A DNA stretch of 64,000 bases from Escherichia coli (lineage in GTDB: Bacteria > Pseudomonadota > Gammaproteobacteria > Enterobacterales > Enterobacteriaceae): the NCBI RefSeq assembly GCF_017348835.2, contig NZ_CP071375.1, one strand, 5' to 3'. Position 1 is the stretch's first letter, and each line of letters begins with the position of its first letter. This document shows positions 9,159 through 31,475 of the stretch, piece after piece. The position numbers and the translations under genes are program-made. The notes below the pieces were generated by a model. The model made no database searches. It was given only the letters and a program-made list of their open reading frames with translations, and was not told where the DNA came from.

Positions 9159-10568
9159 ATGAAAAAATACCAGCAGCTTGCAGAACAATTACGCGAGCAG
9201 ATTGCGTCGGGTATTTGGCAACCCGGCGATCGTTTGCCTTCGTTGCGTGACCAGGTGGCGCTTTCTGGCATGAGCTTTATGACTGTCAGCCATGCCTATC
9301 AGTTGCTCGAAAGTCAGGGATATATTATCGCACGCCCGCAGTCGGGTTATTACGTTGCGCCACAGGCAATAAAAATGCCGAAAGCGCCAGTCATTCCAGT
9401 CACTCGAGATGAAGCAGTCGATATCAACACTTATATTTTTGATATGTTGCAGGCCAGTCGCGATCCGTCGGTCGTTCCGTTTGCCTCGGCCTTTCCCGAC
9501 CCGCGACTTTTCCCCCTACAACAACTAAACCGCTCGCTGGCGCAGGTAAGCAAAACCGCCACAGCGATGAGCGTGATTGAAAACTTACCGCCAGGAAACG
9601 CAGAACTGCGTCAGGCTATTGCTCGTCGCTATGCCTTACAGGGCATCACCATTTCTCCTGATGAAATTGTCATTACTGCCGGGGCGTTAGAGGCATTAAA
9701 CCTCAGTTTGCAAGCGGTAACTGAACCGGGCGATTGGGTGATAGTAGAGAATCCTTGTTTCTATGGCGCGTTGCAGGCGCTGGAACGGCTACGGCTGAAA
9801 GCGTTATCGGTGGCGACGGATGTTAAAGAAGGGATAGATCTTCAGGCGTTGGAACTGGCGTTGCAGGAGTATCCGGTGAAAGCGTGCTGGCTGATGACTA
9901 ATAGCCAGAATCCACTCGGATTTACCTTAACGCCGCAAAAAAAAGCACAACTGGTGGCGTTGCTCAATCAGTACAACGTAACGCTGATTGAAGATGACGT
10001 TTACAGCGAACTTTATTTTGGACGGGAAAAACCGCTGCCTGCGAAAGCGTGGGATCGCCACGATGGCGTTTTGCATTGCTCTTCGTTTTCGAAATGTCTG
10101 GTGCCTGGTTTTCGTATTGGTTGGGTCGCCGCCGGAAAACATGCACGTAAAATTCAACGCTTGCAGCTGATGAGTACGCTTTCCACCAGCTCACCGATGC
10201 AGCTTGCGCTGGTGGATTACCTTTCCACGCGCCGATACGACGCCCATCTTCGTCGCCTGCGTCGCCAGCTTGCGGAACGTAAACAACGTGCCTGGCAGGC
10301 ACTGCTGCGTTATCTGCCTGCGGAAGTGAAAATTCATCATAATGACAGCGGTTATTTTCTCTGGCTGGAGCTTCCCGAACCGTTAGATGCCGGCGAATTG
10401 AGCCTGGCGGCACTGACGCATCATATCAGTATTGCGCCGGGTAAAATGTTTTCTACCGGTGAAAACTGGTCACGTTTTTTTCGTTTTAATACCGCGTGGC
10501 AGTGGGGAGAACGTGAAGAACAGGCGGTAAAACAATTAGGTCACCTTATTAAAGAATACCTGAAATAG
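9159..10568 (+). CDS. ydcR: YdcR MocR/GntR-family regulator with aminotransferase-like domain
   Basis: 469-aa ORF; N-terminal winged HTH then PLP aminotransferase-fold domain. Confidence 0.9.
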   Translation: MKKYQQLAEQLREQIASGIWQPGDRLPSLRDQVALSGMSFMTVSHAYQLLESQGYIIARPQSGYYVAPQAIKMPKAPVIPVTRDEAVDINTYIFDMLQASRDPSVVPFASAFPDPRLFPLQQLNRSLAQVSKTATAMSVIENLPPGNAELRQAIARRYALQGITISPDEIVITAGALEALNLSLQAVTEPGDWVIVENPCFYGALQALERLRLKALSVATDVKEGIDLQALELALQEYPVKACWLMTNSQNPLGFTLTPQKKAQLVALLNQYNVTLIEDDVYSELYFGREKPLPAKAWDRHDGVLHCSSFSKCLVPGFRIGWVAAGKHARKIQRLQLMSTLSTSSPMQLALVDYLSTRRYDAHLRRLRRQLAERKQRAWQALLRYLPAEVKIHHNDSGYFLWLELPEPLDAGELSLAALTHHISIAPGKMFSTGENWSRFFRFNTAWQWGEREEQAVKQLGHLIKEYLK

Positions 10569-22462: not shown

Positions 22463-23524
22463 ATGCATTTACGTCATCTGTTTTCATCGCGCCTGCGTGG
22501 TTCATTACTGTTAGGTTCATTGCTTGTTGCTTCATCATTCAGTACACAGGCCGCAGAAGAAATGCTGCGTAAAGCGGTAGGTAAAGGTGCCTACGAAATG
22601 GCTTATAGCCAGCAAGAAAACGCGCTGTGGCTCGCCACTTCGCAAAGCCGCAAACTGGATAAAGGTGGCGTGGTTTATCGTCTTGATCCGGTCACTCTGG
22701 AAGTTACGCAGGCGATCCACAACGATCTCAAGCCGTTTGGTGTCACCATCAATAACACGACTCAGACGTTGTGGTTTGGTAACACCGTAAACAGCGCGGT
22801 CACGGCGATAGATGCCAAAACGGGCGAAGTGAAAGGCCGTCTGGTGCTGGATGATCGTAAGCGCACGGAAGAGGTGCGCCCGCTGCAACCGCGTGAGCTG
22901 GTAGCTGATGATGCCACGAACACCGTTTACATCAGTGGTATTGGTAAAGAGAGCGTGATTTGGGTCGTTGATGGCGAGAATATCAAACTGAAAACCGCCA
23001 TCCAGAACACCGGGAAAATGAGTACCGGTCTGGCGCTGGATAGCAAAGGCAAACGTCTTTACACCACTAACGCTGACGGCGAAATGATTACCATCGACAC
23101 CGCCGACAATAAAATCCTCAGCCGTAAAAAGCTGCTGGATGACGGCAAAGAGCACTTCTTTATCAACATTAGCCTTGATACCGCCAGGCAGCGTGCATTT
23201 ATCACCGATTCTAAAGCCGCAGAAGTGTTAGTGGTCGATACCCGTAATGGCAATATTCTGGCGAAGGTTGCGGCACCGGAATCACTGGCTGTGCTGTTTA
23301 ACCCCGCGCGTAATGAAGCCTACGTAACGCATCGTCAGGCAGGTAAAGTCAGTGTGATTGACGCGAAAAGCTATAAAGTGGTGAAAACGTTCGATACGCC
23401 GACTCATCCAAACAGCCTGGCGCTGTCTGCCGATGGCAAAACGCTGTATGTCAGTGTGAAACAAAAATCCACTAAACAGCAGGAAGCTACCCAGCCAGAC
23501 GATGTGATTCGTATTGCGCTGTAA
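22463..23524 (+). CDS. yncE: YncE periplasmic beta-propeller protein
   Basis: 353-aa ORF with signal peptide. Confidence 0.9.
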   Translation: MHLRHLFSSRLRGSLLLGSLLVASSFSTQAAEEMLRKAVGKGAYEMAYSQQENALWLATSQSRKLDKGGVVYRLDPVTLEVTQAIHNDLKPFGVTINNTTQTLWFGNTVNSAVTAIDAKTGEVKGRLVLDDRKRTEEVRPLQPRELVADDATNTVYISGIGKESVIWVVDGENIKLKTAIQNTGKMSTGLALDSKGKRLYTTNADGEMITIDTADNKILSRKKLLDDGKEHFFINISLDTARQRAFITDSKAAEVLVVDTRNGNILAKVAAPESLAVLFNPARNEAYVTHRQAGKVSVIDAKSYKVVKTFDTPTHPNSLALSADGKTLYVSVKQKSTKQQEATQPDDVIRIAL

Positions 23525-23636: not shown

Positions 23637-25136
23637 TTAGCTCGCCGTTTCAGGCTTAAACACAATTTCCTGTTTTTCTTCATCTTCCTCGACGACTGGC
23701 GCAGTGCTGTGAATTTCAGCAACGCGTTTGCGCACACCAAACCAGCCTATAACCAGCAGAATACCGATAATCGGCAGCGCCGCGATAGTATAAGTCCCGT
23801 TCGGGTAATCGAACGCCATCAGCACAAGGACACTCAGTAAAAACAGTAATGTCAGCCAGGAAGTGAAGGGCGCGCCAGGCAGTTTAAAACTGACATCCGC
23901 TGCTTTGCCTTCTTTAATCGCTTTACGCAGGCGCATCTGGCACACGATGATAAACGCCCATGAAGCGATGATTCCCAGCGACGCGAAGTTCAACACAATC
24001 TCAAATACGCGCGACGGCACCAGATAGTTGAGGAATACGCCGACGACATACACAACCAGTGTCGCCAGAATCCCGGCATACGGCACATGCTGACGACTCA
24101 TTTTCGCCATAAAACTCGGTGCGGAACCGCCCATCGCCATTGAGCGCAGAATACGTCCGGTGCAGTACAGACCTGAATTCAGGCTGGAGAGGGCAGCGGT
24201 CAGCACCACAATGTTCATAATGCTGCCGATATATGGCACACCCAGTTTAGAGAAAAACGTCACGAACGGACTTTGCCCCGCCTGATACGCGCTCCACGGC
24301 AATAACATAACCAGCAACACCACGGAGCCGACGTAAAACAGGCCAATACGCCAAATCACACTGTTAATCGCTTTAGGTACCATGGTCTGCGGATCTTTAC
24401 ATTCTCCGGCAGCTGTACCCACCATTTCAATGGAGGCAAAAGCAAACACTACGCCCTGAATCAACACCAGCGCAGGCAGCAAACCGTGGGGGAAGAAGCC
24501 GCCATTATCGGTGATTAAATGAAAGCCTGTGGTGTTGCCATCCAGCGGCTGACCACTACCGAGGAACACTGTACCTACGACCAAAAAGGTCACAATGGCG
24601 AGCACTTTAATAAGCGCAAACCAGAACTCCATCTCCGCAAACCATTTCACACCGATCATATTCATGGTGCCAACGATGGTAAGTGCAGCGAGCGCAAAGA
24701 CCCACTGCGGCACGCCGCCAAACGCACCCCAGTAATGCATATACAGAGCGACGGCGGTAATATCAACAATCCCCGTCATCGCCCAGTTGATGAAGTACAT
24801 CCAGCCAGCAACATAAGCGGCTTTCTCACCCAAAAACTCACGGGCATAAGAGACAAAACTGCCACTGGAAGGGCGGTGTAGCACCAGCTCACCCAATGCA
24901 CGCAGAATAAAAAACGAAAACAAGCCACAAATTAAATAAACCAGTGCCAGTGCTGGACCCGCCATTTGCAGTCGGGCTCCTGCACCTAAAAACAAGCCGG
25001 TGCCAATCGCGCCGCCAATGGCGATCATCTGTACCTGGCGATTGCCCATCGCTTTGTGATACCCCTCTTCGTGGGCATTAAGCCAGCGGCGTTTCGCGGC
25101 GTGTTGATCTGAAGTGTCGGTGTCGTGTTTACTCAT
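23637..25136 (-). CDS. ansP: AnsP L-asparagine permease (APC family)
   Basis: Start placed at MSKHDTDTSDQHAAKRRW; amino-acid permease fold. Confidence 0.9.
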   Translation of the reverse strand: MSKHDTDTSDQHAAKRRWLNAHEEGYHKAMGNRQVQMIAIGGAIGTGLFLGAGARLQMAGPALALVYLICGLFSFFILRALGELVLHRPSSGSFVSYAREFLGEKAAYVAGWMYFINWAMTGIVDITAVALYMHYWGAFGGVPQWVFALAALTIVGTMNMIGVKWFAEMEFWFALIKVLAIVTFLVVGTVFLGSGQPLDGNTTGFHLITDNGGFFPHGLLPALVLIQGVVFAFASIEMVGTAAGECKDPQTMVPKAINSVIWRIGLFYVGSVVLLVMLLPWSAYQAGQSPFVTFFSKLGVPYIGSIMNIVVLTAALSSLNSGLYCTGRILRSMAMGGSAPSFMAKMSRQHVPYAGILATLVVYVVGVFLNYLVPSRVFEIVLNFASLGIIASWAFIIVCQMRLRKAIKEGKAADVSFKLPGAPFTSWLTLLFLLSVLVLMAFDYPNGTYTIAALPIIGILLVIGWFGVRKRVAEIHSTAPVVEEDEEKQEIVFKPETAS

Positions 25137-26086
25137 TGCTCTCCCTGATTGCTTTAATGAAAAAGTCATATAAGTTGCCATGAACAATGTTTATTCATCC
25201 TGGCGATGATAGTTATCACCATTATTCTTTATGGGTATAAAACTATCGGCGCAGAATCCTACCTTTTATCGTGTAACGATGCAAAATAATCCCGCTATAC
25301 ATATGTGGGGATGAAGGCGGCGGCGACAAAATAGCAACCTGATGAAATTATGACGGAAACAACCACTATTAGTTTGATGATACCCGACTGCAGTCCAACT
25401 CTTTCGCCACTCGTTCGTCGCTCTGAAAGCCTGTGGTTGCAGTGGACACTGGTGTGGTTGGTCTTCGCTGTTTATCATTGAATAGTGAGGGGCTAGCACA
25501 TGACGGGTTTTAGGGGTAATACGCCAAATACCAATACAATTGCTGATTAGATGTGCCAGTTACCGACGTTACAGAAAGTGCCAAAAAATGTAAGAGGGAT
25601 GTCGGGTGATAAACGCGCTATTGCCCAACAGGAGTTTCTGGAATTAGTCCTGTTCCATGGTCATTACAACTCTTAAAACATTACTTCAATATAATTAATG
25701 TGTATATCATTCTCGATATTAATTTATGAAGTGAATTTGATATATTCCGAATTCTTAATTTACATTACTAATGTATGGGGCATAACGTTAAGATTGATAT
25801 GTGCAGATTAAGATATCAGGGTGGGGCGGTAGCGTTTACAGATATTAATCAATTGATGAGAATTATGTTAACTGCGTAATCATTTTCATCGGTTATTGAT
25901 ATTGAAGATAGATTAATAAAAATGCTGATAATTAATGTTAAGAAATAGAAATGGGAAACGTTGATAACTTGCTTTGATTTCATTTTCTATGAAGATGATG
26001 CCATCAATACTGTATAAAGTAAGAATGTTGAAAATCAAAGAGCGTTTGTGTTTTATCTGAAAGATATTATATCCAGGGGAAAGGAT

Positions 26087-26617
26087 ATGTCTTTAAGGAG
26101 AATGACATCTGGTGAATTAACATTGGCTAGATCGATTTTTGAGAATACAATTGATTATAGCAAGGTATGGATCCACAATGAAAAATATCTGCCTGGTCAA
26201 GGGGAAAGAACAGCGATGACCCCAAACGGGGAAATGTATTATCCTGATGCTGTTTATAGTTCAGATTATTCATCGCAAACAATGCCTGGTGATCGTGAAA
26301 CAGTAGCAGGTGCTTCTCACTTGTTTATTCATGAAATGATGCATGTTTGGCAATATCAGAAAGGGTATGCAGTTAAGTTGCGTGGTTTATTTTCCTGGGC
26401 GGCAAATTATCATTACGTTCTTAATTTACAGTCAATTTCTTCTTATTCCATGGAACAACAAGCATCTATAGTTGCTGATTATTGGCTATTGATTAACTAT
26501 GGACTGGTGGCTGATTTGGCAAATGTTAACTATGTAGGTGATACAACTGAATCAGTTAACACTCTATCGGAAAAATACAAAAAGGTGCTTAATTTATTTC
26601 CTGCGGGTGTCATATGA
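26087..26617 (+). CDS. DUF4157-like putative zinc metallopeptidase (HExxH); candidate polymorphic-toxin / T6SS effector domain protein
   Basis: ORF with HLFIHEMMHVWQYQ motif; start at ATG 26087 after AGGGGAAAGGA; lies in AT-rich DNA; absent from K-12 at this locus as recalled. Confidence 0.6.
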   Translation: MSLRRMTSGELTLARSIFENTIDYSKVWIHNEKYLPGQGERTAMTPNGEMYYPDAVYSSDYSSQTMPGDRETVAGASHLFIHEMMHVWQYQKGYAVKLRGLFSWAANYHYVLNLQSISSYSMEQQASIVADYWLLINYGLVADLANVNYVGDTTESVNTLSEKYKKVLNLFPAGVI

Positions 26618-26970
26618 AGAGGTTCTTTTTGTTTTTCTTTTTGTCGGGATGCACTGTTGGTGATTATGTTCGCCCATTGTTACCCGGTAATGTATATTTA
26701 CAAGATGGACGGGTTTGTTCAAAACCAGACGATGGAGATATTATTTCAAATTATATTTTATATGAAGGTAAATATGGCAATGCAATAAAGCTGAAAAGAG
26801 TAACAGGTCAGTTCGATCCCGTATGTATTGACATAAGTGAGCTATCTCCAGATGTTATTTATATCGGGCAATATATGCTCTCCTCCGGAAGTAAAAAAGA
26901 ATACTATGGTTTTAGGATAATTAGATCCGGAGTACGTATTTTAAGACTTGATGATAACCATATCAAATAA
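26614..26970 (+). CDS. small lipoprotein, candidate cognate immunity protein
   Basis: 118-aa ORF, signal peptide plus lipobox FFLSGC; ATG overlaps upstream stop (ATGA). Confidence 0.6.
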   Translation: MKRFFLFFFLSGCTVGDYVRPLLPGNVYLQDGRVCSKPDDGDIISNYILYEGKYGNAIKLKRVTGQFDPVCIDISELSPDVIYIGQYMLSSGSKKEYYGFRIIRSGVRILRLDDNHIK

Positions 26971-27190
26971 CAGATTAAAAATTTTATTAGTTTCATTAAT
27001 GTGCTTTAGGTGAATGTTTTCACCAGGTTAACATGACGGTGCATTCTTCAAGGCATATATGGTTGATAGTATCTTCAGTAGCTCGCATAAGTATTGAGAT
27101 GTTTTACGCCAGTTACGAATATATTGCATATTTTATTCTCTGTAAGATTTCTTATTAGCACTTAGCCATTTCTAGTTAAAAGGATTAATT

Positions 27191-29185
27191 ATGAGTTTTG
27201 CAGCTACAGATTATCCATCCGGCGCACTAACTGGATCGGGTACACATAACGTGACTTTGAGCGGCAGCGCAGTTCCTGATGGAATGTTACTGTTTGCAAG
27301 CTTAGGGGGTACAGAAACAGTAGGGGAACTATTTACTTATTCTATTAAATTAAAAACTCCTGACATCCTGAACCTGGGCTATGTTTCCCCTGCCGCAAAC
27401 CTGCAGCTCAAACCGATGGTGGGCAAAGATCTGTGCGTCCATATCGAACTGGATGGCGGCGGAAAACGTTATATCAGCGGGCTGGTGACGGCGGCACGCG
27501 TGGCTGGTCATCAAGGACGTTCGGTGGTGTATGAACTGCGGCTCGAACCGTGGTTAAAAATACTGACCCACACTAGTGACTACAAAGCGTTTCAGAATAA
27601 AAACGTGGTGGACATCCTGGATGAGGTACTGGATGAGTATCCCTGGCCAGTGGAAAAACGGCTGGTGGAAAATTATCCGACTCGCGCCTGGCAGGTGCAG
27701 TACGGTGAAACAGATTTCGCTTTTATTCAGCGCCTGATGCAGGAGTGGGGTATCTACTGGTGGTTTGAGCACAGCGAGAACAGTCACACGTTAGTGCTGG
27801 CTGATGCCATTAATGTCCACAAGGCATGCGCAGATTCGCCGCTGGTGTGTTATTACCAGAAAGGGCTGAAACTGGACAAGGAGTTTATCCATACCATCAC
27901 AGCAAATGAAAGTCTGCGCAGCGGACAGTGGGTGCTGAATGATTTCGACTTTATGAAGCCGCGTTCACTGCTGAAGAGCACCGTGGCTAATCCGCGTGAA
28001 ACCGGCCTTGCTGAATATGAGCACTACGAATGGCCGGGAGATTACTTCACAAAGAGTGAAGGTGAAATGCTGACACGCATTCGCATGGAAGAACAGCGTA
28101 GCCCCGGTAGTCGGGTACAGGGCAGCGGCAATATTCGTACCCTGATGACAGGTTTTTCCTTCACCCTGGAAAACTATCCGACAGCCGAAGTGAACCGGGA
28201 ATATCTGCTGGTACAGACCACGCTATTTATACAGGACAATGCGCAACACAGCGGCCAGGAGCAGCATTTCTCTTACTCAACCAGTTTTGAACTGCATCCC
28301 ACCAGCGAAGTTTACCGCCCACAACGAACCCTGAGTAAACCCCACACTAAAGGCCCGCAGAGCGCCATCGTCACCGGCCCGGCAGGGCAGGAAATCTGGA
28401 CAGATAAATATGGCCGGGTGAAAGTTCAGTTTGGCTGGGATCGTTACGGTAAGAATGACGAAAACAGCTCCTGCTGGGTCCGTGTCAGTTATCCGTGGGC
28501 GGGTAAAGGATTCGGTGGCATTCAGATCCCGCGCATTGGTCAGGAAGTACTGGTGGATTTCAAAAACGGTGATCCGGATTTACCGATAATCGTTGGGCGT
28601 ACCTACAACCAGGACACCATGCCACCGTGGGGACTACCGGGCGCAGCGACGCAAAGCGGGTTTTACAGCCATACTATCGGCGGCGGCCCAACCAATGCCA
28701 ACGCACTACGTTTTGAGGATAAACCTGGCGGTGAAGAGGTCTGGCTACATGCCGAAAAAGATCAGCGGATTGAAGTAAATAATAATGAAAGCCACTGGGT
28801 GGGCAATAATCGCCTTAAAGTCATTGATAAAACAGAAACAGCGATAATTGGTGAGGAACGTTCTCTTACAGTTCAGATGGATGATACCTCCCTTGCCGGA
28901 CAAAATAAAACGATTCAGGCCGTACAGAATTTACGCCTTGCTGCGGGAGATTCCATAATTCTTAGTTGTGGGAAAACTATCCTGCAAATGACCAGTGACG
29001 GAATATTTAATATAACCTGTAAGAATTTTAATATTACTGCAACAGAAAATGGAAAGATAAATACACAATCAGGTCAGCTTGATTTAAATATGAATGACAG
29101 GGCTGCAGATATACTTCCGCCTGGAGCATCGGAAAAAACAGCCCTTCAGTTGGCGATAGACGTCGCCTTCATGACTAAAAAATAA
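27191..29185 (+). CDS. vgrG: VgrG type VI secretion spike protein (orphan, Rhs-associated)
   Basis: 664-aa ORF with gp27/gp5-like VgrG signatures ([45 protein letters not shown]). Confidence 0.88.
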
Positions 29186-29235: not shown

Positions 29236-29688
29236 ATGACGGAGTATTATCTCAATGAAACTGTTGTAACTTTTCCCGGGAATATTATTCAGGACAGCAC
29301 TATTAATATGCTGCGCCTCAGCGATCCCGACGCTGCACTCATTATCAGTCGGGGCCAGATGCAGGAAGGAGACGAATTAGCCTCCCAGATTGAACAGCAA
29401 ATGAAAAAACTGGAGAAACAGGTAAAGGATCTTCACTACACGCCCGTTCAGGTAACACGGGTAGGGATTAATGACGGTGAACAAGGGCTGGAAATACAGA
29501 GCCAGTTTCTCAGGGGTAACGAGCAGGTGTACCAGTGTCAGGTGGCATTTGTGTTGCCGGGTGAGCGAGTCATGATGGCCTTCACCTACGCCAGAACCAC
29601 ACCGCTGACCCCGGCAGATATGACGCGCTGGGCTGAAATTAAAAAGAATCTGCGCTTCAGGATGCGGCAGGAAGCCAGGACGAATTAA
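29236..29688 (+). CDS. DUF1795-family Eag chaperone for prePAAR effectors
   Basis: 150-aa ORF between vgrG and the prePAAR-Rhs gene, the canonical chaperone position. Confidence 0.7.
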   Translation: MTEYYLNETVVTFPGNIIQDSTINMLRLSDPDAALIISRGQMQEGDELASQIEQQMKKLEKQVKDLHYTPVQVTRVGINDGEQGLEIQSQFLRGNEQVYQCQVAFVLPGERVMMAFTYARTTPLTPADMTRWAEIKKNLRFRMRQEARTN

Positions 29689-29706: not shown

Positions 29707-31077
29707 ATGGAAGAGGCATTCTGGGCGGCAAGACAGGGTGATGCCCTGCTGCATACGTCGTTTATGGCAGATGTGCTGGGGGCGGTGCTGGAGGTGGCCG
29801 CAAATGTCGTTATTGATGCCCTCATTGTCGGCACAACCTCGTTACTGGCGACGTCAGTGGGGATCACGATGGGGTGCACGGCCGTCGTGCTGACCGGTTT
29901 TGTGGCGGGTGTGGCGATGGTGTACACCGGCGTGACAGAAAAGGTCAGCGAAGCCTGTTCAGCCCTCGCAAATATGCTTTTCCCGCCTCAGATTGAAGGT
30001 TACATCCTCACCGGCTCTGGTGACACATGGATCAACAGCAAACCTGCCGCGCGGGCAGCGGCTACTGCGGCATCGCGGCAGGACATTGAGGCGCAGGACG
30101 CGCAGGCGAAGGCGGAACAGGAAGAAGCGCAGCGTCAGGAGGATGCCAGAACGTTCCGGGATGTGGCCGGGGAATATCTGGAAATGGCGGGGGCCATAGC
30201 CCTGGCGGTTAACCCGGTGACAGGGCCTGTGCTGATGTCCCGGGCGCTGCACGACCAGCTCAGCACGGAAGAAGGGCGTTCTGAAATGGTGGATGGCGTG
30301 ACACATTTTGTGTCGGAACTATGGCAGCCCACTGTGGCCAGTGCGGCCCCGGGCTCCACCCCGACCCCTGACGATAAAATCGACTGCCATAAACATCCTT
30401 CCTCACTGACGCAGTTTCTCGCACAAAAAAAAGCCGCCTTTCTGGATGCCCCCCTGGGAACGGCCCTTAACCTGCTGAGTCCGGACGGTATGCTGGAAAC
30501 CGCCTTTCAGGGAGTGAATGCGGTTATTGGCAGCATCAGTAATCTGTTCAAAGGCGATGACGAGCCGCCCGCAGCGGAATATATCGCGGAAGGCGCGCGG
30601 GATGTGCGTATCAACAGCCAGCCGGCGGCACGCAGCGGGGCACGCTGTACCTGCGAGGCCAGGGTGGTGAATGAGCCGGGGAACGGGGCGTTTGTGTCAC
30701 CGGATGTGCGCATTGGCGGTCCGTTACTGGTGGCCAGGGATATCAGAAGCGGCAGGTCGCAGATAACCCTGGTGGCAACCGTGGCGCTGATGTTTCTTCG
30801 CCCGGGCAAAATGCTTTCTAAAATCGCCTGTTTTGCTGCCAGTGTCGGGATGAGCATGCTGACGCAGAAGGCCACCAGTGCCCTTCCGCATCCGGTCAAT
30901 GCCGCCACCGGGGCCAAATACCTGGCCGATGACGATGACTTCGATTTCAGTCTGCCGGGCCACTTTCCGCTGGACTGGCAGCGCGTGTACAGCAGTCGTG
31001 ACGAACGCACGGAAGGAATGTTTGGTCAGGGCTGGAGTGTGATGTATGAAGTCAGCCTCGTGCGCACACCGGGTATC
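29707..31077 (+). pseudogene. Rhs polymorphic toxin, N-terminal fragment (prePAAR, TM helices, PAAR, start of Rhs core) truncated by deletion
   Basis: prePAAR motif AARQGDALLH at residues 7-16; hydrophobic helices; PAAR-region homology (HPVNAATGAKYL...FGQGWS); reading frame then runs into nhoA-derived sequence. Confidence 0.75.
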
Positions 31078-31475
31078 GGTTGTTGCAGGAGGGTGATGAT
31101 TGGGTGTTGCAGTTTAATCATCATCAGCATTGGCAGTCGATGTACCGTTTTGATCTCTGCGAGCAGCAACAAAGCGATTATGTGATGGGCAATTTCTGGT
31201 CGGCGCACTGGCCGCAGTCGCATTTTCGCCATCATTTGCTGATGTGCCGCCATTTGCCGGACGGCGGCAAGCTGACACTGACCAATTTTCATTTTACCCA
31301 TTATGAAAATGGGCACGCGGTGGAGCAGCGAAATCTACCGGATGTGGCGTCGTTATATGCTGTGATGCAAGAACAGTTTAGTCTGGGCGTGGACGATGCG
31401 AAACATGGCTTTACCGTGGATGAGTTGGCGCTGGTGATGGCGGCGTTTGATACGCACCCGGAGGCGGGAAAATAA
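31078..31475 (+). pseudogene. nhoA: nhoA (arylamine N-acetyltransferase) 3' fragment lacking 5' half
   Basis: Translation LLQEGDDWVLQFNHHQHWQSMYRFD...THPEAGK matches the NhoA C-terminal region as recalled; no N-terminus or start codon present. Confidence 0.75.

Follow-up and report, generated by a model that had tools for sequence, protein, structure and literature searches.

The closest described relatives of the locus considered here are the vgrE/vgrG-2 orphan type VI secretion system (T6SS) loci of Escherichia coli O157:H7 (Z2253–Z2262 at ansP and Z0700–Z0707 at cusS; PMC5363993, PMC12981562), and the T6SS of enterohaemorrhagic E. coli (EHEC) is repressed by H-NS (PMC5363993). In E. coli K-12 the spacer between yncH and rhsE carries a peak for the sigma-70 holoenzyme in genomic SELEX (systematic evolution of ligands by exponential enrichment) as well as an ‘HNS’ flag (PMC3946193), and a PhoB chromatin immunoprecipitation (ChIP) peak at 1,527,862 is marked as inside a previously reported H-NS-bound region (PMC10294691). 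A second relevant system is that of the SymE family, whose genes were found to adjoin RHS genes, whose homologues are preceded by conserved nucleotides and for which small RNAs (sRNAs) were predicted (Kawano et al. 2007). Here we describe an intergenic interval of 950 bp (25137–26086) between ansP and the next gene, which starts at 26087, in a 64,000-nucleotide stretch of E. coli DNA (contig NZ_CP071375.1), called the window throughout. The interval is a composite of three unrelated pieces: the core-genome DNA upstream of ansP (25137–25301), the remains of a glutathione S-transferase (GST) gene (25302–25650) and an AT-rich part (25651–26086). The last of these belongs to a vgrG–Rhs orphan T6SS island, which adds a third allelic type to the vgrE locus beside ansP. 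The account that we favour, with moderate confidence and from sequence comparison, is that this part is the AT-rich 5′ leader of the acquired island and that 25691–25880 would be its promoter/operator, targeted by H-NS and firing rightward.

E. coli strain PE164 matches the interval and its flanks at 100% identity, and the gene coordinates in the window were taken from the Prokaryotic Genome Annotation Pipeline (PGAP) annotation of that identical record. The window island occupies the same slot as the O157:H7 locus (ansP to nhoA), shows the same order of vgrG, DcrB-related gene and Rhs gene, and has the same leader element upstream of vgrG. It differs in that its vgrG shares at most 67% nucleotide identity with those of O157:H7, in that genes for a VgrG2b-C-like effector and a lipoprotein lie between leader and vgrG, and in that only debris is left of yncG, there is no yncH, and a truncated Rhs gene has been joined to a fragment of nhoA. 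When aligned to the other two island types, the window island offers only the element (~70%) and one 300-nt stretch of vgrG (67%), and the spacer from 25881 to 26086 aligns with neither the K-12/O157 nor the cusS type. The element is ~70–76% identical to the K-12 yncH–rhsE spacer and to the cusS–vgrG locus, the remaining spacer being unalignable, and at both the ansP and cusS loci it stands ~340–360 nt upstream of vgrG. A distant search found relatives of 25691–25838 in 4612 genomes, mostly at two sites per genome, namely the K-12/O157 yncH–rhsE (vgrE) locus and downstream of cusS.

The O157 islands at the ansP and cusS loci are 87.8% identical to each other, and the homology starts exactly at the left edge of the element (L011:5310 and L005:5002) and runs through vgrG, so that the island opens with the element. 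The sequence-only reading had drawn the island boundary at the start of its block, a placement that fails: the first 165 bp are core genome, the next ~350 bp are a GST pseudogene of ordinary base composition, and the conserved left end of the island is at ~25691. Its suggestion that the DNA is horizontally acquired is supported by the presence of the full block in only 214–229 of the 5426 complete E. coli genomes and by the collapse of identity to K-12 right of ~25286. A separate observation concerns K-12 and O157, where a GC-rich hairpin, GGTCCCCTCGGGGGAG, with a T-rich run lies directly left of the element (L004 6445–6470 and L011 5285–5310, respectively); it is likely a terminator that closes the yncG–yncH side and marks the island boundary, and the window has no equivalent. 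A comparison with empty cusS sites was uninformative because the 3′ ends of cusS differ between alleles.

Within the element, the core (25720–25840) is 98.3% identical (1.7% mismatches) both to strain R32_14_1F (R32) and to Escherichia sp. E1V33, against 7.7% mismatches in the pooled flanks for R32 (Fisher p = 0.007) and 12.3% for E1V33 (p = 7e-5). An exact 20-mer of the core was found in three GTDB species representatives, two of them Escherichia and the third Superficieibacter electus, where the core separates a GC-rich gene from an AT-rich run of small open reading frames (ORFs) (L008 829–3915). This run holds four or five ORFs of 97–196 aa, one with a signal-peptide-like N-terminus, in which no Pfam families were detected, and it may represent an orphan immunity or effector array outside Escherichia.

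The core has a fixed order, a TAnnAT hexamer followed after 6–7 nt by GTGCAGAT and then by TATCAGGGTGGGGCGGTAGC, and across all copies the universal module can be written as TAnnAT, 6–7 nt, GTGCAGAT, 5–13 nt, TATCAGGGTGnGGCGGTAG(C). All 15 sequences compared, from several different contexts, have TAAGAT, TAAAAT, TAACAT or TAGAAT 6–7 nt before GTGCAGAT, with T1, A2, A5 and T6 of the hexamer invariant. The G-rich core TATCAGGGTGGGGCGGTAGCG is identical or carries one or two mismatches in Escherichia species, Superficieibacter and metagenome contigs. Right of the module the sequence differs by context, and universal conservation stops abruptly after GCGGTAGC. From the substitution pattern of the hexamer and its spacing to GTGCAGAT we infer a sigma-70 −10 element with a transcription start at GTGCAGAT. 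The earlier proposal of a promoter for the downstream gene pair thereby gains comparative support, with promoter activity itself a prediction from the pattern. Since no terminator-like site was found in 24900–26400, a transcript from ~25801 would enter the gene at 26087.

Copies of the module also occur outside the vgrG leaders. The R32 island holds a second copy of the core, flanked by an orphan RHS fragment and by a SymE-family gene that is 5′-truncated and lies on the opposite strand. This arrangement was also found in two other genomes, and scanning metagenomes for variants whose internal spacer is longer gave 15 more loci. At one locus (L023) the ORF of an orphan RHS-WHH nuclease starts 6 nt past the module, with a SUKH immunity gene after it; at another (L024) the module has an Rhs-CT ORF and an Imm8 immunity gene on its left and further ORFs on its right, and a SymE-family frame is open through it on the reverse strand. 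The module marks where vgrG–Rhs orphan islands, and likewise orphan Rhs-toxin/immunity cassettes, have their 5′ edge, in Escherichia as well as in at least one further genus; as far as we could find it is both unannotated and undescribed. The block itself is ordinary, an acquired-island leader beside pseudogene debris and the promoter of a neighbour.

In the account that we favour, an AT-rich upstream block with an H-NS nucleation-like site (25737–25746) would precede a sigma-70 −10 hexamer, TAAGAT, with transcription starting at ~25801. The conserved 5′ end of this transcript would be 35 nt long (through GGGUGGGGCGGUAGC), and the transcript would read rightward into the effector, immunity, vgrG, DcrB-related and Rhs genes, and H-NS would keep the promoter largely silent in laboratory conditions. 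The same module is reused directly upstream of orphan Rhs-toxin/immunity cassettes, pointing away from, and antisense to, the 5′ region of SymE-family genes. If the element is indeed a promoter, it offers a handle on the expression and silencing of ‘orphan’ T6SS cargo and immunity genes, and on why SymE-family toxin genes interleave with Rhs arrays.

Several results weigh against this account. No good conserved −35 was seen at 16–18 nt in the leader copies (2–3 of 6 positions, read by eye), though copies of type Y have TTGGAA 16 nt upstream of TAGAAT (also read by eye). A consensus scanner omitted the TAAGAT promoter and listed TTTACA-17-GAGAAT (25835–25863) and TTGATA-16-AAAAAT (25896–25923) instead. 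For the K-12 homologue of the element, near 1,527,577, there is no transcription start site (TSS) entry in the supplements of PMC10301672 and PMC7815308, and Shimada et al. tied the K-12 SELEX peak to another hexamer pair ~100 nt downstream (PMC3946193). Excess conservation of the core is significant for two of four comparison alleles, and not for no107 or for E. whittamii (core 7.4% versus flanks 9.4% mismatches), in which the island was deleted by an ISEc1-like event. Nor does a promoter readily explain why the first 35 transcribed nucleotides are so strongly conserved and why conservation stops so sharply after GCGGTAGC. Finally, TTGATATATT in Block A matches the proV H-NS site TCGATATATT (Lang et al. 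2007) at nine of ten positions and is the only such match in the block, but the 64 kb hold 17 of these matches where 7.9 are expected, and at that frequency it is weak evidence.

Silencing of the window allele by H-NS is nonetheless plausible by analogy with H-NS-silenced acquired promoters (proU/bgl-type, with the tCGATAAATT motif): the AT-rich part is 71% A+T, its presence among strains is patchy and the 9/10 motif lies in a conserved block. It differs from these in that only the right-hand 437 bp of the block has an AT-rich composition. The PhoB/H-NS-bound region of K-12 is situated ~250–390 bp downstream of the K-12 homologue of the element (1527469–1527614).

It is possible, though we think it unlikely, that the whole block is a plain spacer, neutral AT-rich filler that was acquired and came under H-NS, with any chance site serving as promoter and the 190-bp similarity reflecting shared ancestry. 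When windows of G+C content were run, the sequence-only description of the block as AT-rich proved right for 25651–26087 (28.8%) and wrong for 25302–25650 (46.7%, near genome-typical); the ansP part, 25137–25301, is at 36.4%. Taken over 25188–26086, the bounds originally given, the G+C content is 36.8% against a window mean of 50.0%, which is within the lowest 6.6% of 899-bp windows, the minimum lying elsewhere (30.8%, near 41031). The part 25651–26087 is the lowest-GC 437-bp stretch of the whole 64 kb, and the low-GC tract runs on through two downstream genes to ~27190 (33.3% over 1540 bp), with vgrG back at 49%. That composition suits a filler, as do the nine promoter-like sites counted where 5.3 are expected and the lack of significance for two of the comparison alleles. 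So does the scanner's TTGATA-16-AAAAAT pair, which is kept in R32 and has one or two base changes in no107 and E1V33, all of which retain the gene pair. What a filler does not account for is that a third of the block is a pseudogene of ordinary G+C content and a sixth is core-genome DNA upstream of ansP, that the element aligns between island types whose spacers are unalignable and whose vgrG genes reach only 67%, and that the core motif is kept across genera and in at least six unrelated flanking contexts.

Less probable again is that the module is a recombination joint, a short homology anchor or pseudo-end used in joining, exchanging or deleting T6SS cargo, which would be conserved because it travels and not because it regulates. 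Its position is what such a joint would predict, at the left island boundary in three chromosomal sites or genera and at the 5′ edge of orphan Rhs cassettes, with conservation ending abruptly after GCGGTAGC and a different sequence to the right in each context. The core also starts with CAGGG, as the ends of ISEc1 and the H-repeat do. The window-type allele is found in ~780 E. coli records, and in the ~560 genomes (an estimate) that do not keep the whole block, for example AVS0790, the left end of ISEc1 (CAGGGAAAGATC...) is fused exactly at the CAGGG of the core and all DNA up to the island-terminal ISEc1 copy is gone, which looks like an adjacent deletion mediated by the insertion sequence (IS). 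In E. whittamii an independent ISEc1-like junction lies ~130 bp further right, and there the whole vgrG–Rhs island has been deleted. The module is a practical marker for island boundaries and for island loss mediated by ISEc1. Against a joint stand the mere 5 nt in common with the IS ends, the absence of a recombinase nearby and of a partner repeat at the right end of the island (a second, att-like copy of the element was looked for in R32 and not found), and the length of 35–45 nt, short for homologous exchange. It would also leave unexplained the −10-like substitution pattern and the extra 100 bp conserved leftward in the vgrG leaders. We rejected the terminal inverted repeat of ISAs1/ISEc1 (CAGGG(A/C)AAGAT...) as an identity for the core, CAGGG alone being shared and the window having neither a transposase nor a partner repeat.

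A more speculative extension of the promoter account, which we hold to be doubtful, is that the 45-nt module (TAnnAT, 6–7 nt, GTGCAGAT, 5–13 nt, TATCAGGGTGnGGCGGTAGC) may be a portable promoter and RNA start that travels with T6SS cargo, its transcript both driving the cargo and immunity genes and running antisense to the adjacent SymE-family mRNA. If true, it would tie Rhs arrays to an addiction or regulatory circuit resembling a type I toxin–antitoxin system, and the copy at 25789–25834 would be a portable unit that lost its symE partner.

A related but quite improbable alternative is that the element is an orphan antisense-RNA gene, either a remnant or still active, from an Rhs-associated type I toxin locus of the SymE family, and that a short RNA starting at GTGCAGAT pairs with SymE-like 5′ untranslated regions (UTRs) elsewhere. 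In R32, L016, L017 and the majority of metagenome copies, a SymE-family gene does lie directly to the left on the opposite strand, with the module antisense to its 5′ region. The module is very probably the conserved sequence, with predicted sRNAs, that Kawano et al. (2007) reported upstream of SymE homologues, in the Rhs-associated SymE subfamily, and it points antisense to symE. The K-12 SymR promoter is laid out alike, with TAGAAT and 7 nt before the start, and an RNA that acts by duplex formation needs no intramolecular structure, which fits the null folding results below. In other respects the window differs from K-12 symE–SymR. Neither the window nor the O157 loci L005 and L011 gave a remnant of symE next to the element (tblastn with four SymE proteins), no terminator hairpin follows it, there is no Rfam match to SymR, and the RNA would not cover a SymE start codon. 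A homology of the core to SymR or the symE 5′ UTR of K-12, which seemed possible by eye, was rejected when a profile of the module gave E > 2 against K-12 symER in nhmmer. With neither a symE remnant nor SymR similarity, we have not filed the element as a SymR homologue.

Two further observations concern SymE-family genes. In the Rhs orphan arrays of L016, L017 and L024, opposite-strand SymE-family genes recur between successive Rhs-CT/immunity cassettes, several of them 5′-truncated or given an ATT start in the annotation, and one (L017 5104–5397) abuts the right end of an H-repeat. In R32 (L014 13530–13900), the antisense strand of an Rhs-associated SymE-family gene is matched by the Rfam models of Ssr1 (a Shigella sRNA; E = 1.6e-81, below the gathering score) and isrA (E = 4e-5). 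This match stops ~30 nt short of the conserved core, and published ‘island sRNAs’ may thus be antisense transcripts of symE-like genes.

That the core encodes a small protein (MCR..YQGGAVA.. from the plus or LPPHPDI.. from the minus strand) is very improbable: the two variable core positions of the cusS type are third codon positions of the plus-strand frame, and in L024 and L025 the minus-strand frame runs uninterrupted across the core into SymE, but the plus-strand ORF varies from ~15 to ~40 aa (hand translation), loses its start codon in E. whittamii and shifts frame at GTGCAGAT in Superficieibacter, while on the minus strand every leader copy has a stop inside 14 codons (hand translation), the core and SymE are in different frames in the R32/L030 type and a start codon is lacking, and the small ORFs of the element in general conserve neither start, stop nor frame and have no Pfam matches.

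Other identities of the element were considered. A structured RNA was rejected, RNAalifold giving −4.65 kcal/mol with no compensatory pairs, and single-sequence folds had z-scores of −0.03 to +0.8 on the two strands. The only cmscan match to Rfam in 24500–27500 up to E = 1 was a chance eukaryotic small nucleolar RNA (E = 0.4), and searches for tRNA, tmRNA and tandem repeats found nothing relevant. Consensus scans for Fur, RcsAB, sigma-54, CRP, FNR, IHF, Fis, LexA, SlyA and Lrp returned nothing convincing, and nothing in the core; their ad hoc scoring is weak because N positions were scored as matches. A sigma-54 reading of the core (GG-N10-GC, by eye) was discarded, as it fits poorly beyond the GG and GC dinucleotides.

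The left-hand piece belongs to ansP. As ansP lies on the minus strand, the block is upstream of the gene and not downstream of it as first described, and the left bound originally given, 25188, was also wrong: the ATG of ansP ends at 25136, and 25187 is merely the end of a TTG-extended ORF. The first 165 bp of the interval are matched in 5405 of the 5426 genomes, typically over query positions 1–165 at ~94%, and are 97.6% identical to K-12 up to 25286. They must carry the promoter and 5′ UTR of ansP itself, though no convincing pair of promoter hexamers was found in 25137–25301. Right of ~25286 the identity to K-12 falls to ~65–70% or nothing, which places the true start of the variable region at ~25286–25340.

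The middle piece (25302–25650) is what ordinary pseudogene decay has left of a divergent, yncG-like gene for a GST. In K-12 this slot is taken by yncG and yncH, and the window remnants align to YncG at the same genomic position, but with 52–56% amino acid identity, two internal deletions and no yncH. The two remnants share one frame, which is interrupted by three stop codons over 25341–25586, and the N-terminal ~60 codons are missing. At the nucleotide level they are 65–70% identical to K-12 yncG, the two deletions being large. The segment is the most variable among alleles, with many substitutions and indels, and at the equivalent position in R32 PGAP calls a 39-aa ‘glutathione S-transferase’. 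A functional GST was rejected, residues 61–105 and 174–200 alone being alignable and three stops intervening. The divergent debris would have come with the variable region, or have been replaced along with it, and decayed neutrally. The statement that the block is non-coding and has no convincing ORF stands insofar as the interval holds no intact gene and PGAP calls none in PE164, and has to be qualified for these remnants; the longest ORFs of the interval (77 aa on the minus strand and 43 aa on the plus strand) have no Pfam matches.

Downstream of the leader, the two genes ahead of vgrG are probably, judged from their sequences, a free-standing effector–immunity pair at the head of the vgrG operon. 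The first encodes a protein with an HEMMH motif and had been called DUF4157-like, a label we withdraw: there is no match to PF13699 up to E = 1, and the best Pfam hit is DUF6782 at E = 0.17. The second has a match below the cut-off to NF045617, the ‘putative T6SS immunity periplasmic lipoprotein’ family. The lipoprotein junction is present in 222 of the 230 genomes with this vgrG type (among the 5426), and we rejected the idea that the pair is a cassette inserted between leader and vgrG, as no variant without the pair was found. An inverted repeat of 30 nt, 77% complementary (25925–25954 and 27166–27195), brackets the pair, its right arm overlapping the vgrG start codon; with no genome lacking the pair, it is probably a chance match in AT-rich DNA.

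Table 1. Features of the interval and its surroundings (window positions unless a locus is named)
Feature	Position	Strand	Basis
yncE	22463–23524	+	PGAP, PE164 record
ansP coding sequence	23637–25136	-	PGAP, PE164 record
ansP 5′ region (promoter and 5′ UTR), core genome	25137–25301	-	presence in complete genomes, K-12 identity
yncG-like GST pseudogene, remnant A (~aa 61–105 of K-12 YncG)	25341–25475	+	tblastn 55.6% identity, E = 3.6e-9
yncG-like GST pseudogene, remnant B (~aa 174–200)	25506–25586	+	tblastn 51.9% identity, E = 7e-4
Conserved leader element, leftmost segment of vgrG–Rhs orphan islands	25691–25880 (~190 bp)	+	cross-locus alignment
Block A, GTGAATTTGATATATTCC	25731–25748	.	nearly invariant among vgrG-leader copies
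H-NS high-affinity-like site TTGATATATT in Block A	25737–25746	.	9/10 match to proV H-NS site
−10-like hexamer TAAGAT of putative rightward promoter	25789–25794	+	comparison of 15 sequences
GTGCAGAT, putative transcription start region	25801–25808	+	invariant in every copy found
G-rich core TATCAGGGTGGGGCGGTAGCG	25814–25834	+	single copy in window, none expected by chance
Allele-specific AT-rich spacer up to effector start codon	25881–26086	+	28% GC
HExxH metallopeptidase-like T6SS effector gene	26087–26617	+	P. aeruginosa VgrG2b effector domain, PDB 6H56, E = 1.8e-20
Lipoprotein (118 aa), putative cognate immunity protein	26614–26970	+	NCBIfam NF045617, E = 3e-8, below curated cut-off; lipobox FLSGC
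vgrG of orphan island	27191–29185	+	PGAP, PE164 record
DcrB-related gene	29236–29688	+	PGAP, PE164 record
Truncated DUF6531/Rhs pseudogene	29707–31074		PGAP, PE164 record
nhoA fragment	31065–31475		PGAP, PE164 record
yddE	after nhoA fragment	-	PGAP, PE164 record
ISEc1 (H-repeat) left-end fusions to leader, different lineages	L003 6660–6690; L009 ~10530–10560		

The island is decaying in the window strain. Of its Rhs gene only the DUF6531/PAAR-like N-terminal part is left, fused at ~31065–31074 to the 3′ part of nhoA, and relative to R32 the deletion has taken the Rhs core and toxin, the immunity gene, the orphan cassettes, the symE-like gene, ISEc1, yddH and the 5′ part of nhoA. The window has one other strongly AT-rich stretch (40991–43572, with 30.8% G+C over 899 bp near 41031). 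It holds a pair of neighbouring genes on the minus strand whose products are leucine-rich-repeat proteins of 424 and 421 aa. The pair resembles the yddK/yddL region of K-12, and the gene adjoining it is presumably narU.

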